64,000 nt of DNA from sequence record NC_054918.1. One strand, 5' to 3'. The notes below the pieces were generated by a model. The model saw only the letters and a program-made list of their open reading frames with translations. It searched no databases and had not been told where the DNA came from. This DNA is from Escherichia phage vB_EcoM_G4498. This document shows positions 4,600 through 62,034 of this stretch, piece by piece; position 1 is the stretch's first letter, and each line of letters begins with the position of its first letter. The translations under genes and the position numbers were made by a program.

Positions 4600-4971
4600 T
4601 CACTTAAATTTAATGGCTTGAAGAAGACTAATAATTCTCAAGCGACTTCCTTCATCTTTAACTGTAAAAGAAAGAGGGTCACCAGATTTCATAGTGATAG
4701 TGCATTCAAAAGCAAAACCTTCGGGAACTTCTTCGAAGAAGTCAAATTCTTCATCATAAATTAGAACATTACTCTGAAAACTGTGAAGAATTTTTCCGTC
4801 ATTTCCAGATGCTGTACTAATCATTGTAACATTATTACCTTTCATATCTTCAACGATAAATTCGCTTGTAGATATTACAGCATTAATAGAACCATTCCTA
4901 TAAATAGCAGAAAATAGATATTTCTTTTCTTCACCTTCGCGAATGCGATATTTCTTACCGATTTTAAACAT
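4600..4971 (-). CDS. hypothetical protein, 123 aa, with a GoF-like C-terminal motif
   Basis: Intact ORF. EEFDFFEEV resembles EAEFFNEV in the goF product. Confidence 0.6.
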   Translation of the reverse strand: MFKIGKKYRIREGEEKKYLFSAIYRNGSINAVISTSEFIVEDMKGNNVTMISTASGNDGKILHSFQSNVLIYDEEFDFFEEVPEGFAFECTITMKSGDPLSFTVKDEGSRLRIISLLQAIKFK

Positions 4972-11488: not shown

Positions 11489-11545
11489 AACTTTATGTAA
11501 AAATGCTTTAAAACTTTCATGGTATAATGAATCTAAGTCCTTCCA

Positions 11546-15280: not shown

Positions 15281-15799
15281 TTAATAACCTCGGTCTTGAC
15301 GAGCGAAATTTTCAGCATTTTTCAGATAATAAAGTTTAAAGATTTCTTCTGCTGTAAGACCAAGACCTTGAAACATGTTCAGAACAAAATGGAGAATATC
15401 AATCATTTCGAATTTGATTTCTAACTGGTCCTGTGGAGACAAATCAGTAATCAGAGTTTCACGACGTTCACCATGCTGAGCTTTCCACGGCTTCCATACA
15501 GCAGATGCATCTTTTTCGCCATTACTCATACCACCAAGAGAAGTCAGAAGTTCGCGGAATTCATCATCAATATAATCTTTCTGATTACGCAGCCAATCAA
15601 CAACTTCACCTGCAGTAGCCAAATCATCAGGATGACGGTTATATTCAGGTTTATCTTTAGCTAAACGAACTTGCAGAGATTTCTGCATATCAAGCATTAC
15701 CTGCAGCGGGTCTTTTTCATCACCGAGAATATCCCAATATTCATTTTGAGCTTTATCAGCGCCTTCGATCAGTTGACTACATTCGTTGAAATGTGGCAT
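15281..15799 (-). CDS. 56: dCTPase/dUTPase (gp56), 172 aa
   Basis: MazG-like all-alpha NTP pyrophosphatase sequence. Matches T4 gp56 in size and position. Confidence 0.9.
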   Translation of the reverse strand: MPHFNECSQLIEGADKAQNEYWDILGDEKDPLQVMLDMQKSLQVRLAKDKPEYNRHPDDLATAGEVVDWLRNQKDYIDDEFRELLTSLGGMSNGEKDASAVWKPWKAQHGERRETLITDLSPQDQLEIKFEMIDILHFVLNMFQGLGLTAEEIFKLYYLKNAENFARQDRGY

Positions 15800-15800
15800 G

Positions 15801-16451
15801 TTATTTTTCCTTTCTTATGAAGTTTTCTATCATATGTCTATAGCAGATATTAGGATAACCTGCCTTGACAGCTATTTTATTAAATTTTGTGCGCTTAGGT
15901 CTATTATTATAAACCCATAATTCATAAAGCGCATCATAACTATTCCATATTTCTCCTCGCCTAGGATTTGGTAAACCATATCGAGGTGAATTTTTACCGC
16001 TAAATCTTCCTTTTCGGGCTTTACTCATATTAGCCTTGGCTTCATCGGATATAATTTTACCTTTATGAGCTAGACGCATTTTGGCTTTAGTTTCTTCTGG
16101 GGTCTTTTTGCCTTTAATCCATGACGGCTTGCCATATCTAGGATTATTTTCACCCGAGAAAAGAACAGAGTTTTGGATTTTAAGGGTTTCTATTAATCTA
16201 CTTGTTAATTTAACACCTTTATTATATCGCATTAAATTTACAGCATAATGCAATCCTCTCACATCTGGATATATTTTAGTTAATAATCTATGAGCTATAA
16301 AATGCTCACGCGCAGTTAACTCAACAAGATTGTTTTTGTCATCTGCTCCTCCTATACATCTAGGAATTATATGATGGCGTTCTTTATATCCGCCAAGATG
16401 CCGGCATTTAGCTTTTGTAATTAAAGCCGAGTAAATTTTTTGGTAATTCAC
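15801..16451 (-). CDS. free-standing HNH homing endonuclease (Mob-like), 216 aa, GTG start
   Basis: HHIIPR...NLV.LT.REH HNH core. NUMOD3-like repeats (NNPRYGKP, KNSPRYGLP). GTG at 16449-16451 after AAGGA. Confidence 0.85.
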   Translation of the reverse strand: MNYQKIYSALITKAKCRHLGGYKERHHIIPRCIGGADDKNNLVELTAREHFIAHRLLTKIYPDVRGLHYAVNLMRYNKGVKLTSRLIETLKIQNSVLFSGENNPRYGKPSWIKGKKTPEETKAKMRLAHKGKIISDEAKANMSKARKGRFSGKNSPRYGLPNPRRGEIWNSYDALYELWVYNNRPKRTKFNKIAVKAGYPNICYRHMIENFIRKEK

Positions 16452-16484
16452 ATATATCCTTTCAATTCATGGGTTAGTAGATTA

Positions 16485-16510
16485 ATTATACAATAAATAT
16501 ATAAAGCAAT
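16485..16510 (-). promoter_or_regulatory. MotA-dependent middle promoter upstream of the HNH gene and gene 56
   Basis: Minus strand ATTGCTTTA (perfect MotA box), 11 nt, TATAAT. Confidence 0.6.
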
Positions 16511-16521
16511 AAGGAGGACAT

Positions 16522-16722
16522 ATGGTACAAAAATTAATGGCACTTGTTAATGCCATAAAAGGTAATAAGAAACGTATAGCTTTTACTATTTCTGCTATGG
16601 TAGGAATTTTACTCTGGAACTTTATTTTATCACCTGTTGCAATTGCACATGGTATTAATATTCCAGTAGTTACTCTTGATACATTCGTAGATTTAGCATT
16701 TGCTTTAGTTGGGTTAATTTAA
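16522..16722 (+). CDS. small two-TM membrane protein, 66 aa, plus strand
   Basis: Strong SD AAGGAGG 4 nt before the ATG and phage-like A/T-ending codons. Two hydrophobic segments. The 3-prime end overlaps the gene 61 stop convergently. Confidence 0.45.
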   Translation: MVQKLMALVNAIKGNKKRIAFTISAMVGILLWNFILSPVAIAHGINIPVVTLDTFVDLAFALVGLI

Positions 16723-17747
16723 ATCTTAGCATATTTAGATAGCCGCATTTTAGCCATCAACCCCTGGGCAATATTATTTTTCATATATTCCATAATTTGT
16801 TCAGGGGTTGCACCTTCCTTTCTAATCATATCATTAACATCTTTTGATTTCCAGGGAGATTTATCCCAAAACATAACCCTTTCTCCTACATCAACTAATT
16901 TAGTCATTCGCTTGATAGTGTCAGGGTGACGAGGTTCATTATCTAAAACCCACACTCGTCTATCTTTAAATGGAACAACTTCTAGGTCTAATTGACCACC
17001 CGTAATAGCTATACCATTTTCAATAAAAAGTGAATCTATAGGTCCTTCTAGAACATATACATCACCATCTTTAACTCGTTCAACACCGTAAATTTTTGTT
17101 GCCTCAGGATAAGCTTTAATGGTGATATATTTTTGAGGAGCATCTTTCTTTAATGCACGTCCTTGAAAAGACTCAGCTTTTCCATTAGCATTATAAATTG
17201 GAATAACAAGACGAGGCTCAGAAATTTCCTTTTTGTATGTTCCCGGTGCTATGCTATTAACTAATTTAGGCCATTCGGTTGTAAACCAAAGATATTTCCA
17301 TTTATCCTTTGGAATACAACGAGCTTTTACATATTTTATAATTGGATGGTCTTCCGCCAGTTTATCTAATCTAACACATGACGGAAGAGATTTAATTATT
17401 TTCTTCTCAGGTTGCTTAGGAAGTTCTTTAGGTTTTTCTACTGGACGACTTTTACCTTTTTCTTTTCTTATTTCAAAAATATACTCACGATATAAATCAG
17501 GTTCAAACTCCTTTAAATATATTCCGATTGGTGCATGATAGTTACAGTTATAACAATGAATATTTCCTTCATTATTATCGCCGTAATACCATCCACGGGC
17601 TTTATTTTGGTCGGTTTTTGAATCTCCACAAACAGGGCATCTAAACCGTAATTTAAAAGTTGAACTATTATTTACTTGTGTGAATTTAGGTAAATGAGCT
17701 AGCGCACGGTATGCAAACTCATTATCAATCCAAGGTATTGATGACAT
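16719..17747 (-). CDS. 61: DNA primase gp61, 342 aa
   Basis: Zinc ribbon CPVCGDS...CYNC plus Toprim. Matches T4 gp61. Confidence 0.95.
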   Translation of the reverse strand: MSSIPWIDNEFAYRALAHLPKFTQVNNSSTFKLRFRCPVCGDSKTDQNKARGWYYGDNNEGNIHCYNCNYHAPIGIYLKEFEPDLYREYIFEIRKEKGKSRPVEKPKELPKQPEKKIIKSLPSCVRLDKLAEDHPIIKYVKARCIPKDKWKYLWFTTEWPKLVNSIAPGTYKKEISEPRLVIPIYNANGKAESFQGRALKKDAPQKYITIKAYPEATKIYGVERVKDGDVYVLEGPIDSLFIENGIAITGGQLDLEVVPFKDRRVWVLDNEPRHPDTIKRMTKLVDVGERVMFWDKSPWKSKDVNDMIRKEGATPEQIMEYMKNNIAQGLMAKMRLSKYAKI

Positions 17748-17749
17748 TT

Positions 17750-17914
17750 TTACTCTTCTTTTTCTTTAGATTCCTCTTTTTTCTTTTTAGGAATCTGTTC
17801 AGGACCTTTATTTACTACAGCGCCTGATGCTGTTCCAGTAGAGATATTTTCAGGATTACCACCTGAATCTCCAGCGACCATATCTTCTTTGATAAATTCT
17901 TTATATGTTTTCAT
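17750..17914 (-). CDS. small protein (61.1 position), 54 aa, with a capsid-targeting-like N-terminus (not in the ORF track)
   Basis: My own translation: MKTYKEFIKEDMVAGDSGGNPENISTGTASGAVVNKGPEQIPKKKKEESKEKEE. Fills the gap exactly. Confidence 0.55.
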   Translation of the reverse strand: MKTYKEFIKEDMVAGDSGGNPENISTGTASGAVVNKGPEQIPKKKKEESKEKEE

Positions 17915-17915
17915 A

Positions 17916-18542
17916 TTAACCTCTATTCATAAAAGCATTAAAAATTTGGTCATCAATAGAAACATTCACTTTAGACTGTTTTTCTGATGGTAATTCATAT
18001 CCACATATTACAATTTTATGATCAATATCAAAATACACAGAAGCAATATGATTAATGATGTTTTCAGTAAAGTCTAAATCAACATCAATATCTTTTTGAC
18101 CACAGCCCAAAGGATAAATAATGCGAGTAATTCGATTATCTTTAACAAAGATTCCACCGATATACTCTGTGCTGCGTTCAAAGTCTACACGCCGACGAAA
18201 TGAAAAATATTCAGGCTCTTTATGAGCTCGGCTCATAGGACACAACGAGTAACTAGAATAAGAGATGTCAAATCCTACGCCTTCAATATGAGCCAAATTA
18301 TCATGATTAAACCAATTATAATCGTACGCCAAGTCCATTAGATTATAATATGTGAAAGGCACCGGATTAACATCACTAGTCGCAAGCATGTAATTAGCAA
18401 CTGCTATAATTTCGTTGTTTTTAACGAATACAAACCGCGATTGATGCGAATGACCTGGACCTGCGTTTTCACGATTAATGATATAACACTGGGCACCTTT
18501 ATATTTGTACGTGTCTTTGCACTTGTGCATTTGATAAAGCAT
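17916..18542 (-). CDS. adfA: gp61.2-position protein, 208 aa (family reported as AdfA, anti-DarTG)
   Basis: Position between 61.1 and sp and size. The assignment to the AdfA family is from memory of the literature, not from alignment. Confidence 0.5.
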   Translation of the reverse strand: MLYQMHKCKDTYKYKGAQCYIINRENAGPGHSHQSRFVFVKNNEIIAVANYMLATSDVNPVPFTYYNLMDLAYDYNWFNHDNLAHIEGVGFDISYSSYSLCPMSRAHKEPEYFSFRRRVDFERSTEYIGGIFVKDNRITRIIYPLGCGQKDIDVDLDFTENIINHIASVYFDIDHKIVICGYELPSEKQSKVNVSIDDQIFNAFMNRG

Positions 18543-32234: not shown

Positions 32235-32242
32235 TATAAATA
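32235..32242 (+). promoter_or_regulatory. late promoter TATAAATA for the plus-strand HNH endonuclease gene
   Basis: Exact TATAAATA on the plus strand, 34 nt before the ATG at 32276. Confidence 0.7.
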
Positions 32243-32275
32243 TGTTTATCACTCGCTGTATCAAAAGGATATGTT

Positions 32276-32992
32276 ATGAATTATAAACTAATTTATGAAA
32301 AGTTAATCTCTAATGCTAAATCTCGAAAACTTGATTGCTATACTGAATCTCATCACATTATACCACGCTGTTTAAACGGTAGTGATGATGCTTCAAACTT
32401 AGTAGATTTAACGCCAGAAGAGCACTATGTAGCTCATCAACTTTTAGTAAAAATTTATCCTTCTGAACCAAAATTAGTCTATGCTGCTAACATGATGACA
32501 GTTTCCACGAAATACGCTAAACGCAACAATAAAACTTTCGGTTGGATTCGTCGTAAACTCTGGGAAATAGAAAAGAACAAAGAATTCTCCCAGGAGACAC
32601 GAAAGAAAATGTCTGATGCAGTAGCTAATAAAGCAAGACTAACTTGTCCTCATTGCGGTAAGTCTGGATTAAGCGGGAATATGAATCGTTGGCATTTTGA
32701 TAACTGTCCAAATCACCCTAATCCTAAAGTTAGACCACCATTGTCTAAAGAACACAGAAATAATATCTCAAACGGGCTTAAAGCAATCGTTCTTGAAGAA
32801 ACATCCTGCGAATTCTGTGGAATGATAGGCAAGAAATGCGTTATCGCAGCGCATAGAAATTTCTGCAAGAAAAATCCAAATGGACGCAAGAAAACTGAAA
32901 AGACTGGTACTTGCGTCCATTGTGGTAAAGTTACCACTTTCGGAAATTTATCAAGATGGCATAATGATAACTGTAAATATAAACCTAGCTAA
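32276..32992 (+). CDS. free-standing HNH homing endonuclease with three C-terminal zinc-finger repeats, 238 aa, plus strand
   Basis: The N-terminus is paralogous to the 15801-16451 product (MNY..IY..LI..AK.R.L..Y.E.HHIIPRC..G.DD..NLV.LT.(R/E)EH). Exact late promoter TATAAATA at 32235-32242 and an AAGGA SD. Confidence 0.85.
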   Translation: MNYKLIYEKLISNAKSRKLDCYTESHHIIPRCLNGSDDASNLVDLTPEEHYVAHQLLVKIYPSEPKLVYAANMMTVSTKYAKRNNKTFGWIRRKLWEIEKNKEFSQETRKKMSDAVANKARLTCPHCGKSGLSGNMNRWHFDNCPNHPNPKVRPPLSKEHRNNISNGLKAIVLEETSCEFCGMIGKKCVIAAHRNFCKKNPNGRKKTEKTGTCVHCGKVTTFGNLSRWHNDNCKYKPS

Positions 32993-34673
32993 TCTTAGCT
33001 AAACTAAATCTACCAACTTTTTCCATCTGAATATGCTGACCATATTCTTGTGGGTCATGGTCTTTATGCGAAATTATGAAGAAGTTGGTATCCTTCAAAC
33101 CATCTAAAATTTTAGCTACATTTTTAATACCTTCAGCATCAAATGCACCGTCATATACTTCATCAAGAAATAAACAGCTTATTTTAACACCTGAAACTTT
33201 TTCAGCAATATCACGCCAAGTAAATAAAAGAGCAATATCAATTCGCGCTTTTTCACCTTGACTGAATGAAGCATAACTAAAATCTTCACGACCACGGGAT
33301 TTAATTGTCTCATTAAATTCTTCATCTAATGTAAACACATAATCCGCTTCCATTATTTTAAGATAATGGTTAATCTGCTTATTAAATAATGGAATGTACT
33401 TTTTAATAATAGCACCTTTAATACCAGAATCTTTGAGCATATCAGTCAAAATTCCTCGGTGGTATTTTTCCATTACTAAATTAGTTTTTGTCTTAACAAT
33501 TTTATCAAGTTCTTCTTGAAGCAGTGCTATTTCATCAGCATGGTCAATAAACTCAGAAGATGCTTTTTCTATAGCTGCTTTAACTTTTTTAGCTTTATCT
33601 ACTGTCGTGATTAGAGATTGCTTTTTATTGCGAATATCATTTGCCAACGACTGCTGGGTTTTAATATTATCTCGGTATTCATCAACAAGAACTTTTAAAT
33701 TATCACGATGTGTTGAAAGCTGTTCAAACGAATGCGTGCATTCAGAAACTTTATCTTTAATTTTAGAAACAACTTTATCACCGGAACTTAATTGCGACAA
33801 ACAGGTTGGACATAATCCACCTTCGTGATACATATTAATGACTTTATTATATGAGTCAATTTTTGATTTAATTAAAACTGCTTCTTGACCGATTTTATTA
33901 AATGCATCAGTCGGGTCTTCATCCAAAACAATATTAACTAATCTTTCATTAGCTTCTTCTATTTCCGATTTTAGCGTTCTAGCTTCTTTTGCCAAATCAT
34001 CGTACATATTTTGCAGACGAGTAAGATTGTCACCCGTTAATTTTTTCTGGCGTTCAACGTTATCATTATATATTTTAATTTGTTGGATAATACTATCTTT
34101 TTTAACATCAAGCACTTGGTTTTGTGAATTTAATTCACGTATTAGTGCTTTATTAAGCTTATCCATTTCAGCTAATGTTCCTACCTCAAGCAGGTCTTCC
34201 ACAAGCTTTCTTCGCGCAGGGGTCGACAAACCCATGAAAGGGGTATACCCTGCTGTACCAAGGACAACAATCTGCTTGAAACTGGCATATGACATTCCGA
34301 TAAGCTGTTCAAATTCTGCTTGGAAATCTTTACTGCTGGCAGATTCATTAAGACGTGTACCGTTAACGGTGATTTCGAAAACGTTTGGTTTTTGTCCTCT
34401 TTTGATATAGTACTTTTTCTCATCATATTCCATCCACAGTTCAACTAAAAGTTCTTTCTTATTTGTGCTGTTTATTAATTGACCTTTCTTTACATCACGA
34501 AATGGTTTGCCAAAAAGCCCAAATGTGATGGCTTCTAACATAGTAGACTTACCACCGCCATTTCGGCCAGTAATAAGAGTTTTTTGAACCTTATCTAGTT
34601 GAATGTCAATAGGATTTCCACCTACTGACATTATATTTTGATACCTAACTCGGTTTAGTTTAAAATTCTTCAC
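32985..34673 (-). CDS. 46: gp46 recombination nuclease subunit (Rad50/SbcC-like ATPase), 562 aa
   Basis: Walker A GRNGGGKST, a coiled coil with a CPTC zinc hook, and a signature/Walker B near the C-terminus. Confidence 0.95.
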   Translation of the reverse strand: MKNFKLNRVRYQNIMSVGGNPIDIQLDKVQKTLITGRNGGGKSTMLEAITFGLFGKPFRDVKKGQLINSTNKKELLVELWMEYDEKKYYIKRGQKPNVFEITVNGTRLNESASSKDFQAEFEQLIGMSYASFKQIVVLGTAGYTPFMGLSTPARRKLVEDLLEVGTLAEMDKLNKALIRELNSQNQVLDVKKDSIIQQIKIYNDNVERQKKLTGDNLTRLQNMYDDLAKEARTLKSEIEEANERLVNIVLDEDPTDAFNKIGQEAVLIKSKIDSYNKVINMYHEGGLCPTCLSQLSSGDKVVSKIKDKVSECTHSFEQLSTHRDNLKVLVDEYRDNIKTQQSLANDIRNKKQSLITTVDKAKKVKAAIEKASSEFIDHADEIALLQEELDKIVKTKTNLVMEKYHRGILTDMLKDSGIKGAIIKKYIPLFNKQINHYLKIMEADYVFTLDEEFNETIKSRGREDFSYASFSQGEKARIDIALLFTWRDIAEKVSGVKISCLFLDEVYDGAFDAEGIKNVAKILDGLKDTNFFIISHKDHDPQEYGQHIQMEKVGRFSLAKIS

Positions 34674-61672: not shown

Positions 61673-62034
61673 TACAAACTCTCGGTAAAGGTACGAGCGA
61701 TAACGTCGCGCTGCTGTTCCGGAGTCAGAGAGTTAAAGCGAACTGCATAACCGGATACACGGATGGTCAGCTGCGGATATTTTTCCGGATGCTTAACTGC
61801 ATCTTCCAGAGTTTCACGACGCAGAACGTTAACGTTCAGGTGTTGACCACCTTCAATTTTAACTGTAGGCTGTGGCTCAATTTCAATTTCACGGGCATGC
61901 AAACCATAGAAAATTTCTGGGTCTACAAAAGAGTCCTCTTTAAAGGTTTTAGAAACGATAATTCGTGCTTGAATACCATCTTCAAAATAAATAGTACCTT
62001 TATGTGTTCCTTCAAGAATTTGATATGCTTTCAT
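61672..62034 (-). CDS. vs.6: autonomous glycyl-radical cofactor (GrcA/YfiD-like; vs.6 position), 120 aa
   Basis: The C-terminal ~60 aa, [59 protein letters not shown], carries the RVSGY glycyl-radical signature. As I recall, it is identical to E. coli GrcA. Confidence 0.85.

Follow-up and report, generated by a model that had tools for sequence, protein, structure and literature searches.

The early region of Escherichia phage vB_EcoM_G4498 contains a short open reading frame (ORF) on the strand opposite to the surrounding genes, which raises the questions of whether it is a gene and, if so, what its product may do. The window analyzed here is a 64,000-nucleotide (nt) stretch of sequence record NC_054918.1. 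It represents the early region of a Tequatrovirus (T4-like) genome, with the gene order soc, 56, 61, 61.1, 61.2, sp, 61.4, dmd, and 41 onward, all on the minus strand. The ORF lies on the plus strand at positions 16522 to 16722 (ATG at 16522, TAA at 16720 to 16722), between dCTPase gene 56 and primase gene 61. Its 66-amino-acid (aa) product is MVQKLMALVNAIKGNKKRIAFTISAMVGILLWNFILSPVAIAHGINIPVVTLDTFVDLAFALVGLI, in which the hydrophobic stretches quoted in an earlier first-pass annotation of the window are present. Comparison of sequences indicates that the ORF is a genuine translated gene, under purifying selection and syntenic in seven Tevenvirinae lineages. The gene is already catalogued as a hypothetical protein with no assigned function (phrog_2024, RB69ORF029w, RB32ORF030w) and is absent from the T4 reference annotation. 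We consider it highly probable that the locus is a self-contained T-even gene module, made up of a late promoter, a strong ribosome-binding site (RBS), and the 66-codon ORF, in which the ORF converges on gene 61 and the late promoter diverges from that of gene 56.

Conservation in related phages, which the first-pass annotation had proposed as a check, is extensive. A tblastn search with the 66-aa protein matched 695 phage records, 685 of them at ≥80% of full length. Broken copies are rare, with split matches in two records. The protein matches phrog_2024 (hmmscan, E = 1.4e-31), with residues 2 to 66 aligned to profile positions 1 to 65 of 65. In RB14, the gene is named RB32ORF030w and described as similar to RB69ORF029w; its product (ACP30675.1) is 100% identical to the window protein. 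The exact protein sequence (ACP30675.1 and others) occurs on 259 contigs, and a single-protein scan of viral contigs returned 5 loci. The T4 copy, located at 17738 to 17938 within a 310-nt stretch between dam and gene 61, is 97% identical. It is annotated in more recent automated T4 records but not in the T4 reference records NC_000866 and AF158101. The equivalent position, flanked by genes 56 and 61, is filled by a plus-strand ORF of 63 to 69 codons in Mosigvirus, Gaprivervirus, Kanagawavirus, Dhakavirus, a Klebsiella T4-like phage, and RB69. Amino acid identity to the window protein spans 22 to 97% over the seven lineages, and in the other genera it runs from 55% down to 22 to 27%. Two profile searches widened the family, always to Tevenvirinae phages of Enterobacterales.

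The substitutions within the family are mostly silent or mild. Among 14 distinct Tequatrovirus alleles, the mean proportion of synonymous differences (pS) is 0.12, compared with 0.025 for nonsynonymous differences (pN). The ratio of nonsynonymous to synonymous rates (dN/dS) is 0.1 to 0.3, and all replacements are conservative (V/I, A/T, N/S, and I/L). Between genera, pS is 0.64 to 0.76, a range that is largely saturated, and pN is 0.32 to 0.37. Residues W32, N33, P38, G44, and G64 are invariant in the orthologs, and P48 is nearly so. ORF length alone is no better than chance, as the window holds many spurious ORFs of ≥60 aa. It is the conservation and the pattern of synonymous and nonsynonymous substitution that identify a genuine gene here despite the uninformative length, and the conservation together with the rarity of the flanking signals that raises the ORF above chance. 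In T4, the reference phage of the group, the reference annotation lacks a gene on which purifying selection acts in every enterobacterial T-even lineage sampled. A literature search found neither RB69ORF029w nor RB32ORF030w in the main text of any paper searched, and it found no T4 Ribo-seq study and no T4 small-ORF reannotation study.

The signals that flank the ORF are strong and are retained in relatives. The Shine-Dalgarno (SD) sequence AAGGAGG (plus strand, 16511 to 16517) ends 4 nt (ACAT) before the ATG and is the sole copy of this heptamer in the window, both strands counted, in agreement with the strong RBS reported at first pass. The corresponding spacer is 6 nt in T4, and (A)GGAGG or AAGGAG is kept upstream of every ortholog. 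At the other end, the stop codons of the ORF and of gene 61 (minus strand, 16719 to 17747) are interlocked in the sequence TTAA (both strands, 16719 to 16722), which is the 4-nt overlap with the convergent primase gene that had been described. An identical overlap is present in T4, RB14, Mosigvirus, Dhakavirus, and RB69. A gap is found in its place in Gaprivervirus (108 nt) and in the Klebsiella phage. The A/T-ending codons observed earlier amount to 85% of third positions, compared with 73 to 80% in neighboring genes, and the frame of the ORF is the best scoring of the six by local codon usage. The ORF had also been called one of only two plus-strand genes. The other is an HNH endonuclease gene at 32276 to 32992, and the near-identical phage G50 agrees, as its copy of the 66-aa ORF is the only coding sequence on the plus, or late-sense, strand within the first 65 kb.

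A near match to a late promoter had been placed upstream of the ORF at first pass, and it is indeed there. The sequence AATAAATA (plus strand, 16492 to 16499) is a variant T4-type late promoter box with A for T at position −13, matching 7 of 8 positions and ending 22 nt before the ATG. An AT-rich segment, TATAAA, lies downstream of it. The position of the box is kept across the seven lineages: a NATAAATA box is found 12 to 22 nt before the orthologous ATG in every lineage sampled, including Tequatrovirus, Mosigvirus, Gaprivervirus, Dhakavirus, Kanagawavirus, and Klebsiella T4-like phages. The form AATAAATA is present in the window, RB14, Mosigvirus, and Dhakavirus; GATAAATA is present in T4 and T2; CATAAATA is present in Gaprivervirus; and the perfect TATAAATA is present in Kanagawavirus. 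The Klebsiella phage has CATAAATA, plus GATAAATA farther upstream. In a review of T4 late transcription (PMC2988020), the box is placed at −13 to −6; 32 of 50 sites match it perfectly, and the natural variant seen most often carries A at −13 (9 of 50). Nolan et al. described T at −13 as poorly conserved in relatives, A or T being common. Applied to the window, the published T4 late promoter geometry predicts a transcription start at A16505 on the plus strand and a 17-nt leader, AGCAATAAGGAGGACAT. In a separate observation, the Kanagawavirus ortholog in Enterobacter phage IME523 (NC_070777, 1468 to 1677) encodes 69 aa, has a perfect TATAAATA upstream, shares 24 nt with the end of the primase gene, and is unannotated in RefSeq.

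The core motif of this box is scarce in the window. ATAAATA occurs 8 times, whereas 39 ± 6 copies are expected from dinucleotide-preserving shuffles, an approximately 5-fold depletion that is consistent with selection against stray late promoters in an early region. Five of the 8 copies stand 22 to 33 nt upstream of a correctly oriented ATG, and these belong to soc, gene 49 (where the box is also AATAAATA), the rI.-1/rI unit, the plus-strand HNH gene, and the 66-aa ORF. Late use of the soc, gene 49, and rI.-1/rI promoters is established. Because the box is kept in position across lineages, the motif is depleted elsewhere, and other copies serve soc, gene 49, and rI.-1, expression of the 66-aa ORF is likely to be late and gp55 dependent. 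When the T4, T2, and RB14 arrangements are compared, upstream similarity starts at the late box, whatever precedes it. The box is plausibly the left edge of a functional unit, for which shared similarity starting at the box would be expected.

A late promoter at this place need not act through a protein. A late antisense RNA might be its main product, extending into gene 61 and reducing primase mRNA at late times, with the peptide secondary. The two genes are convergent and overlapping, and an intrinsic-terminator scan found no plus-strand terminator within 1.2 kb downstream of the ORF. Three further plus-strand late-type boxes in the window have no credible ORF, at 4899 to 4906 (TATAAATA), 18113 to 18120 (GATAAATA), and 61986 to 61993 (AATAAATA), and late RNAs antisense to early genes may start there. 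However, an antisense RNA would leave unexplained the purifying selection at the amino acid level, the strongest SD sequence, and the invariant W, N, P, and G residues. The 108-nt gap between the ORF and gene 61 in Gaprivervirus also argues against it, as does the Klebsiella phage, where the space separating the ORF from gene 61 holds a GC-rich inverted repeat, AGGGGCtttgGCCCCT, that reads by eye as a possible hairpin terminator. We regard antisense RNA as an improbable main product, and the two roles could coexist.

The conserved product is predicted to be a small membrane protein with one transmembrane (TM) helix. A basic cluster, KGNKKR (residues 13 to 18; plus strand, 16558 to 16575), precedes the helix in all orthologs and is placed on the cytoplasmic side by the charge map and the positive-inside rule. 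The predicted TM helix (residues 19 to 42; plus strand, 16576 to 16647) carries a conserved W-N-(F/Y)...P motif in its outer half and is indicated by hydropathy (Kyte-Doolittle maximum of 2.0 over residues 23 to 41), by AlphaFold, and by published TMHMM results. For RB69ORF029w, the published predictions are one TM helix at residues 21 to 41 by TMHMM and no signal peptide by SignalP. An AlphaFold2 model built with 13 family sequences (pLDDT of 79.5) contains helices at residues 2 to 12, 16 to 42, and 52 to 63 and a loop at 43 to 51, in which (H/Q)-G-x-x-(L/I/V)-P is conserved. The short C-terminal helix (residues 52 to 63; plus strand, 16675 to 16710) has an acidic face (D53 and D57) and, from the model, hydropathy, and charges, is predicted to be periplasmic or interfacial. 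Two hydrophobic helices had been proposed at first pass. The first stretch is a likely membrane span; the second, VDLAFALVGLI, falls in a helix of only 12 residues with an acidic face, which is too short to cross the bilayer, and a second TM span was ruled out. A single-pass topology with the N terminus inside and approximately 24 residues outside is probable on these models. Conservation, purifying selection, and the one predicted TM helix together sustain the earlier call of a real gene for a small membrane protein. The only tryptic peptide of convenient size is LMALVNAIK, the remainder forming a 48-residue hydrophobic fragment, so standard proteomics would probably miss the protein.

Searches beyond the family returned no characterized relative. 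The 66-aa protein has no match in Pfam (Imm family included) or NCBIfam and none among the PADLOC models of defense and counterdefense systems at E ≤ 10. An exhaustive phmmer search of 1.84 billion representatives returned family members and long repetitive hydrophobic proteins only, and a Foldseek search of the AlphaFold model against BFVD returned family members only. The names "Holin," "DNA packaging ATPase," and "dCTP pyrophosphatase," each attached to a single database entry, were treated as annotation noise.

The first-pass annotation had suggested a holin-like protein, and a holin, or a holin-like effector of lysis or exclusion that permeabilizes the membrane by itself, would fit a product that is small, probably late, and predicted to insert into the membrane. 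The one UniProt entry labeled "Holin" (phage OE5505) and a loose resemblance of M1 and M6 to a dual-start motif point the same way. The label, however, is an isolated automatic name among hundreds of "hypothetical protein" entries, and the second Met is not conserved. With its single TM helix, the protein lacks a charged C-terminal tail, as the C terminus (...LAFALVGLI) is hydrophobic and uncharged after D57 and the charges are N-terminal. There is no match to a Pfam, NCBIfam, or PADLOC profile, the neighbors are genes 56 and 61 and not endolysin or spanin genes, and T4-type phages already own holin T. We give this suggestion little credence.

It is very improbable that the hydrophobic segment is instead a cleavable signal peptide that releases a 24-residue periplasmic peptide (P38 at −5; A-I-A then H-G). 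By our reading of the −3/−1 rule, all orthologs have Pro at −5, a small residue (A, S, or T) at −1, and a basic n-region. The h-region, however, is approximately 19 residues long and anchor-like, and the published predictions for RB69ORF029w are negative by SignalP and positive by TMHMM. Invariant W-N inside the segment would also be unusual for a disposable signal peptide.

The following sequence of events is proposed. Once replication has begun, RNA polymerase with gp55, gp33, and gp45 would open AATAAATA and transcribe from near A16505. The 17-nt leader would present AAGGAGG for translation of the 66-aa product. The product would enter the inner membrane as a single-pass protein. On its cytoplasmic side would lie KGNKKR and the N-terminal amphipathic helix, and on its periplasmic side the (H/Q)G..P loop and the short acidic-faced helix, joined by the TM helix at about residues 19 to 42. 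The conserved residues of the outer span and the loop would then dock onto another membrane protein; their clustering there is typical of small docking proteins.

The docking step is favored because the span holds invariant Asn and Pro residues and because the invariant residues cluster in its outer half and in the juxtamembrane loop. Conservation of Asn and Pro inside a TM helix is usually a sign of specific helix packing. From this pattern, we tentatively propose that the protein acts by binding a membrane partner, which is a possibility somewhat short of even. As a guess, it may modulate a late envelope event (lysis timing, lysis inhibition, or late exclusion) through helix-helix binding to a phage or host membrane protein; any one of these roles, taken singly, is unlikely. 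A fuller version is more doubtful still, namely, that an overlooked late gene conserved throughout T4 and its relatives supplies a missing part of the T-even envelope program. Its bitopic product could use the W-N...P...HG..P segment to bind holin T, antiholin RI, or a host inner membrane protein and thereby set lysis timing or inhibition or block late superinfection. If true, this fuller version would bring a further participant into a phage phenotype that is among the oldest studied. Adding the gene to the T4 list costs little and provides T4 geneticists with a new target, a small and probably late membrane protein whose partner could bear on lysis control, exclusion, or membrane integrity. 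The value is otherwise modest, as the result tidies the T4 gene list and gives no evidence for a new kind of system.

Several points weigh against a late-expressed membrane protein with such a role. A hidden Markov model (HMM) scan of RB69 by Nolan et al. lists no plus-strand late promoter near RB69ORF029w, and the same authors state that late promoters were found only upstream of orthologs of known late genes. Position −13 of the box is G in T4 and T2 and C in Gaprivervirus. The SD-to-ATG spacer in the window is short, and no plus-strand terminator was found after the ORF in the 1.2 kb scanned. No homology to any characterized protein was detected, and the functional guess is based on the conservation pattern alone. 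The literature search found no transcript, ribosome occupancy, or protein evidence for any ortholog.

The opposite strand carries signals of its own through the same DNA. A MotA-type middle promoter, ATTGCTTTA-N11-TATAAT (minus strand, 16485 to 16510), serves the HNH gene that adjoins the ORF in the window and gene 56, and it stands back-to-back with the late promoter. It was identified by pattern match (TGCTTTA-N11-TATAAT, 16508 to 16485); the MotA pattern search of the window gave 2 matches, with 0.04 expected. The middle promoter sequence is also present in RB14, which has no HNH gene here. An overlap of the RBS with the MotA box of the other strand had been described at first pass. The MotA box (16502 to 16510) in fact abuts the RBS without coinciding with it, but the signals of the two strands do overlap, as the late box sits inside the spacer of the gene 56 middle promoter in the window and in RB14-type genomes. 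In T4, the annotation marks a potential dam promoter, P(E)17.40, whose −35 element falls on the late box by arithmetic from that annotation. In RB69, a published predicted middle promoter, Pm:16038, lies in the equivalent 88-nt gap. Elsewhere in the window, a perfect MotA-box-plus-−10 pattern, TGCTTTA-N12-TATAAT, is found on the plus strand at 11504 to 11528 (chance expectation, 0.04 in the window), with a polarity opposite to that of all known middle transcripts. From G50 coordinates, we take this pattern to lie between srd and the first RNA polymerase ADP-ribosylase (mod) gene.

These signals bear on whether the ORF might be untranslated, with an incidental open frame in DNA that is kept only because it flanks or terminates gene 61 on the 3′ side and forms part of the gene 56 promoter region. 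A weak hairpin that resembles a terminator and is followed by a T-run (ATGGCAttaacaagTGCCAT then TAATTTTTGT; minus strand, 16537 to 16556) lies within codons 6 to 12 of the ORF, approximately 165 nt downstream of gene 61, with a stability of about −9 kcal/mol. Such a hairpin could dampen transcription that continues past gene 61 into the promoter region of gene 56. The frame of gene 61 also stays open for >66 codons beyond its TAA in the window, T4, T2, and Mosigvirus, spurious ORFs of ≥60 aa are common in the AT-rich window, and the curators of the T4 reference left the ORF uncalled. The hairpin, however, is kept in Tequatrovirus only and is absent from other genera, which rules it out as the cause of conservation. 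Stops interrupt the continuing frame of gene 61 in PuKrdSF2, Kanagawavirus, Gaprivervirus, and the Klebsiella phage; a read-through extension of the primase was ruled out on this ground, and the open frame is probably a by-product of the codon pattern on the opposite strand. Synonymous change far exceeds nonsynonymous change, protein motifs persist at 22 to 55% identity where the DNA is only approximately 58% identical, and the length (63 to 69 aa), ATG, and SD sequence are retained in seven lineages. An untranslated ORF is extremely improbable, and we retain the reading of a translated gene.

The adjoining HNH gene (minus strand, 15801 to 16451) raises the last alternative. It encodes 216 aa from a GTG start, matches phrog_655, and has NUMOD3 and HNH domains. 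The insertion separates the RBS of gene 56 precisely from the start codon; the native RBS is reused by the HNH gene, whose 3′ end re-creates AAAGGAAAAATAA before gene 56. The first codons of gene 56 read MPHFNE in the window and MAHFNE in RB14, and the irregular alignment at this point hints at a co-conversion tract. Free-standing endonuclease genes sometimes carry passengers, and the first-pass annotation had proposed the ORF as cargo of this homing endonuclease cassette, a proposal left with next to no chance by approximately 685 records with the ORF against 30 with the HNH gene at the site (>95% of carriers lack it), by the presence of the ORF without the HNH gene in RB14, T4, T2, Mosigvirus, Gaprivervirus, Dhakavirus, Kanagawavirus, and the Klebsiella phage, and by homology to RB14 that resumes at 16457 (101 of 104 positions), 65 nt before the ORF, in what is native promoter DNA. 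The count of 30 comes from a megablast search with positions 15700 to 17800, which returned 565 records; the other records match the flanks only and not the HNH-containing middle. Because of this distribution of carriers and because the insertion ends at 16457, the ORF is placed in the resident backbone.

The gap between gene 56 and the 66-aa ORF (16457 to 16521 in the window; 17626 to 17737 in T4) is a recurrent insertion site. It holds no insert in RB14, the HNH gene in the window, dam in T4, and both dam and the HNH gene in ELT1 and IME537, while T2 has a different ORF of 181 aa there. In each arrangement, the fixed right-hand boundary of the site is the late box of the 66-aa ORF, and the box and RBS are retained in RB14, T4, and T2. 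The second, plus-strand HNH gene of the window (32276 to 32992) encodes 238 aa and is 36% identical to the first over 174 aligned residues. It has a perfect TATAAATA 33 nt before its ATG (region, 32235 to 32992), overlaps at its 3′ end a minus-strand ORF (32985 to 34673) by 8 nt, and is absent from G50. From its position relative to the G50 annotation, the minus-strand ORF is presumably gene 46.

Among known genes, the closest comparison is with RB69ORF029w, RB32ORF030w, and phrog_2024, which are the identical gene, with the same position between genes 56 and 61 and one predicted TM helix. The locus differs from that of RB14 only in its upstream neighbor, the HNH gene of the window, and a late promoter had not been predicted for the family before. 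Like soc, gene 49 (endonuclease VII), and rI.-1/rI, the 66-aa ORF has an (A/T)ATAAATA box 22 to 30 nt before the ATG and a short SD-containing leader. Those genes lie on the minus strand, whereas the 66-aa ORF lies on the plus strand, has no other promoter, and is known here from sequence alone. T4 holin T and antiholin RI are anchored in the inner membrane with the N terminus inside and the C terminus outside and act by protein-protein contacts. The 66-aa protein has no sequence or fold similarity to either, and its gene shows no linkage to t, rI, or e. The periplasmic domains of T and RI are sizeable, compared with approximately 24 predicted periplasmic residues in the 66-aa protein. The superinfection exclusion proteins Imm and Sp (spackle) are likewise small envelope proteins of the early region, but their genes are on the minus strand. 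Two TM helices are present in Imm, and Sp is secreted into the periplasm. Small single-pass proteins that regulate larger membrane proteins, such as Escherichia coli MgrB and AcrZ, and ORF52 of phage BSPM4, a phage protein that tunes holin function (PMC11657625), are comparable to the 66-aa protein in size, in their bitopic arrangement, and in having most of their conserved residues in the TM and juxtamembrane segment. None of them is homologous to it, and they provide a working analogy by architecture only.

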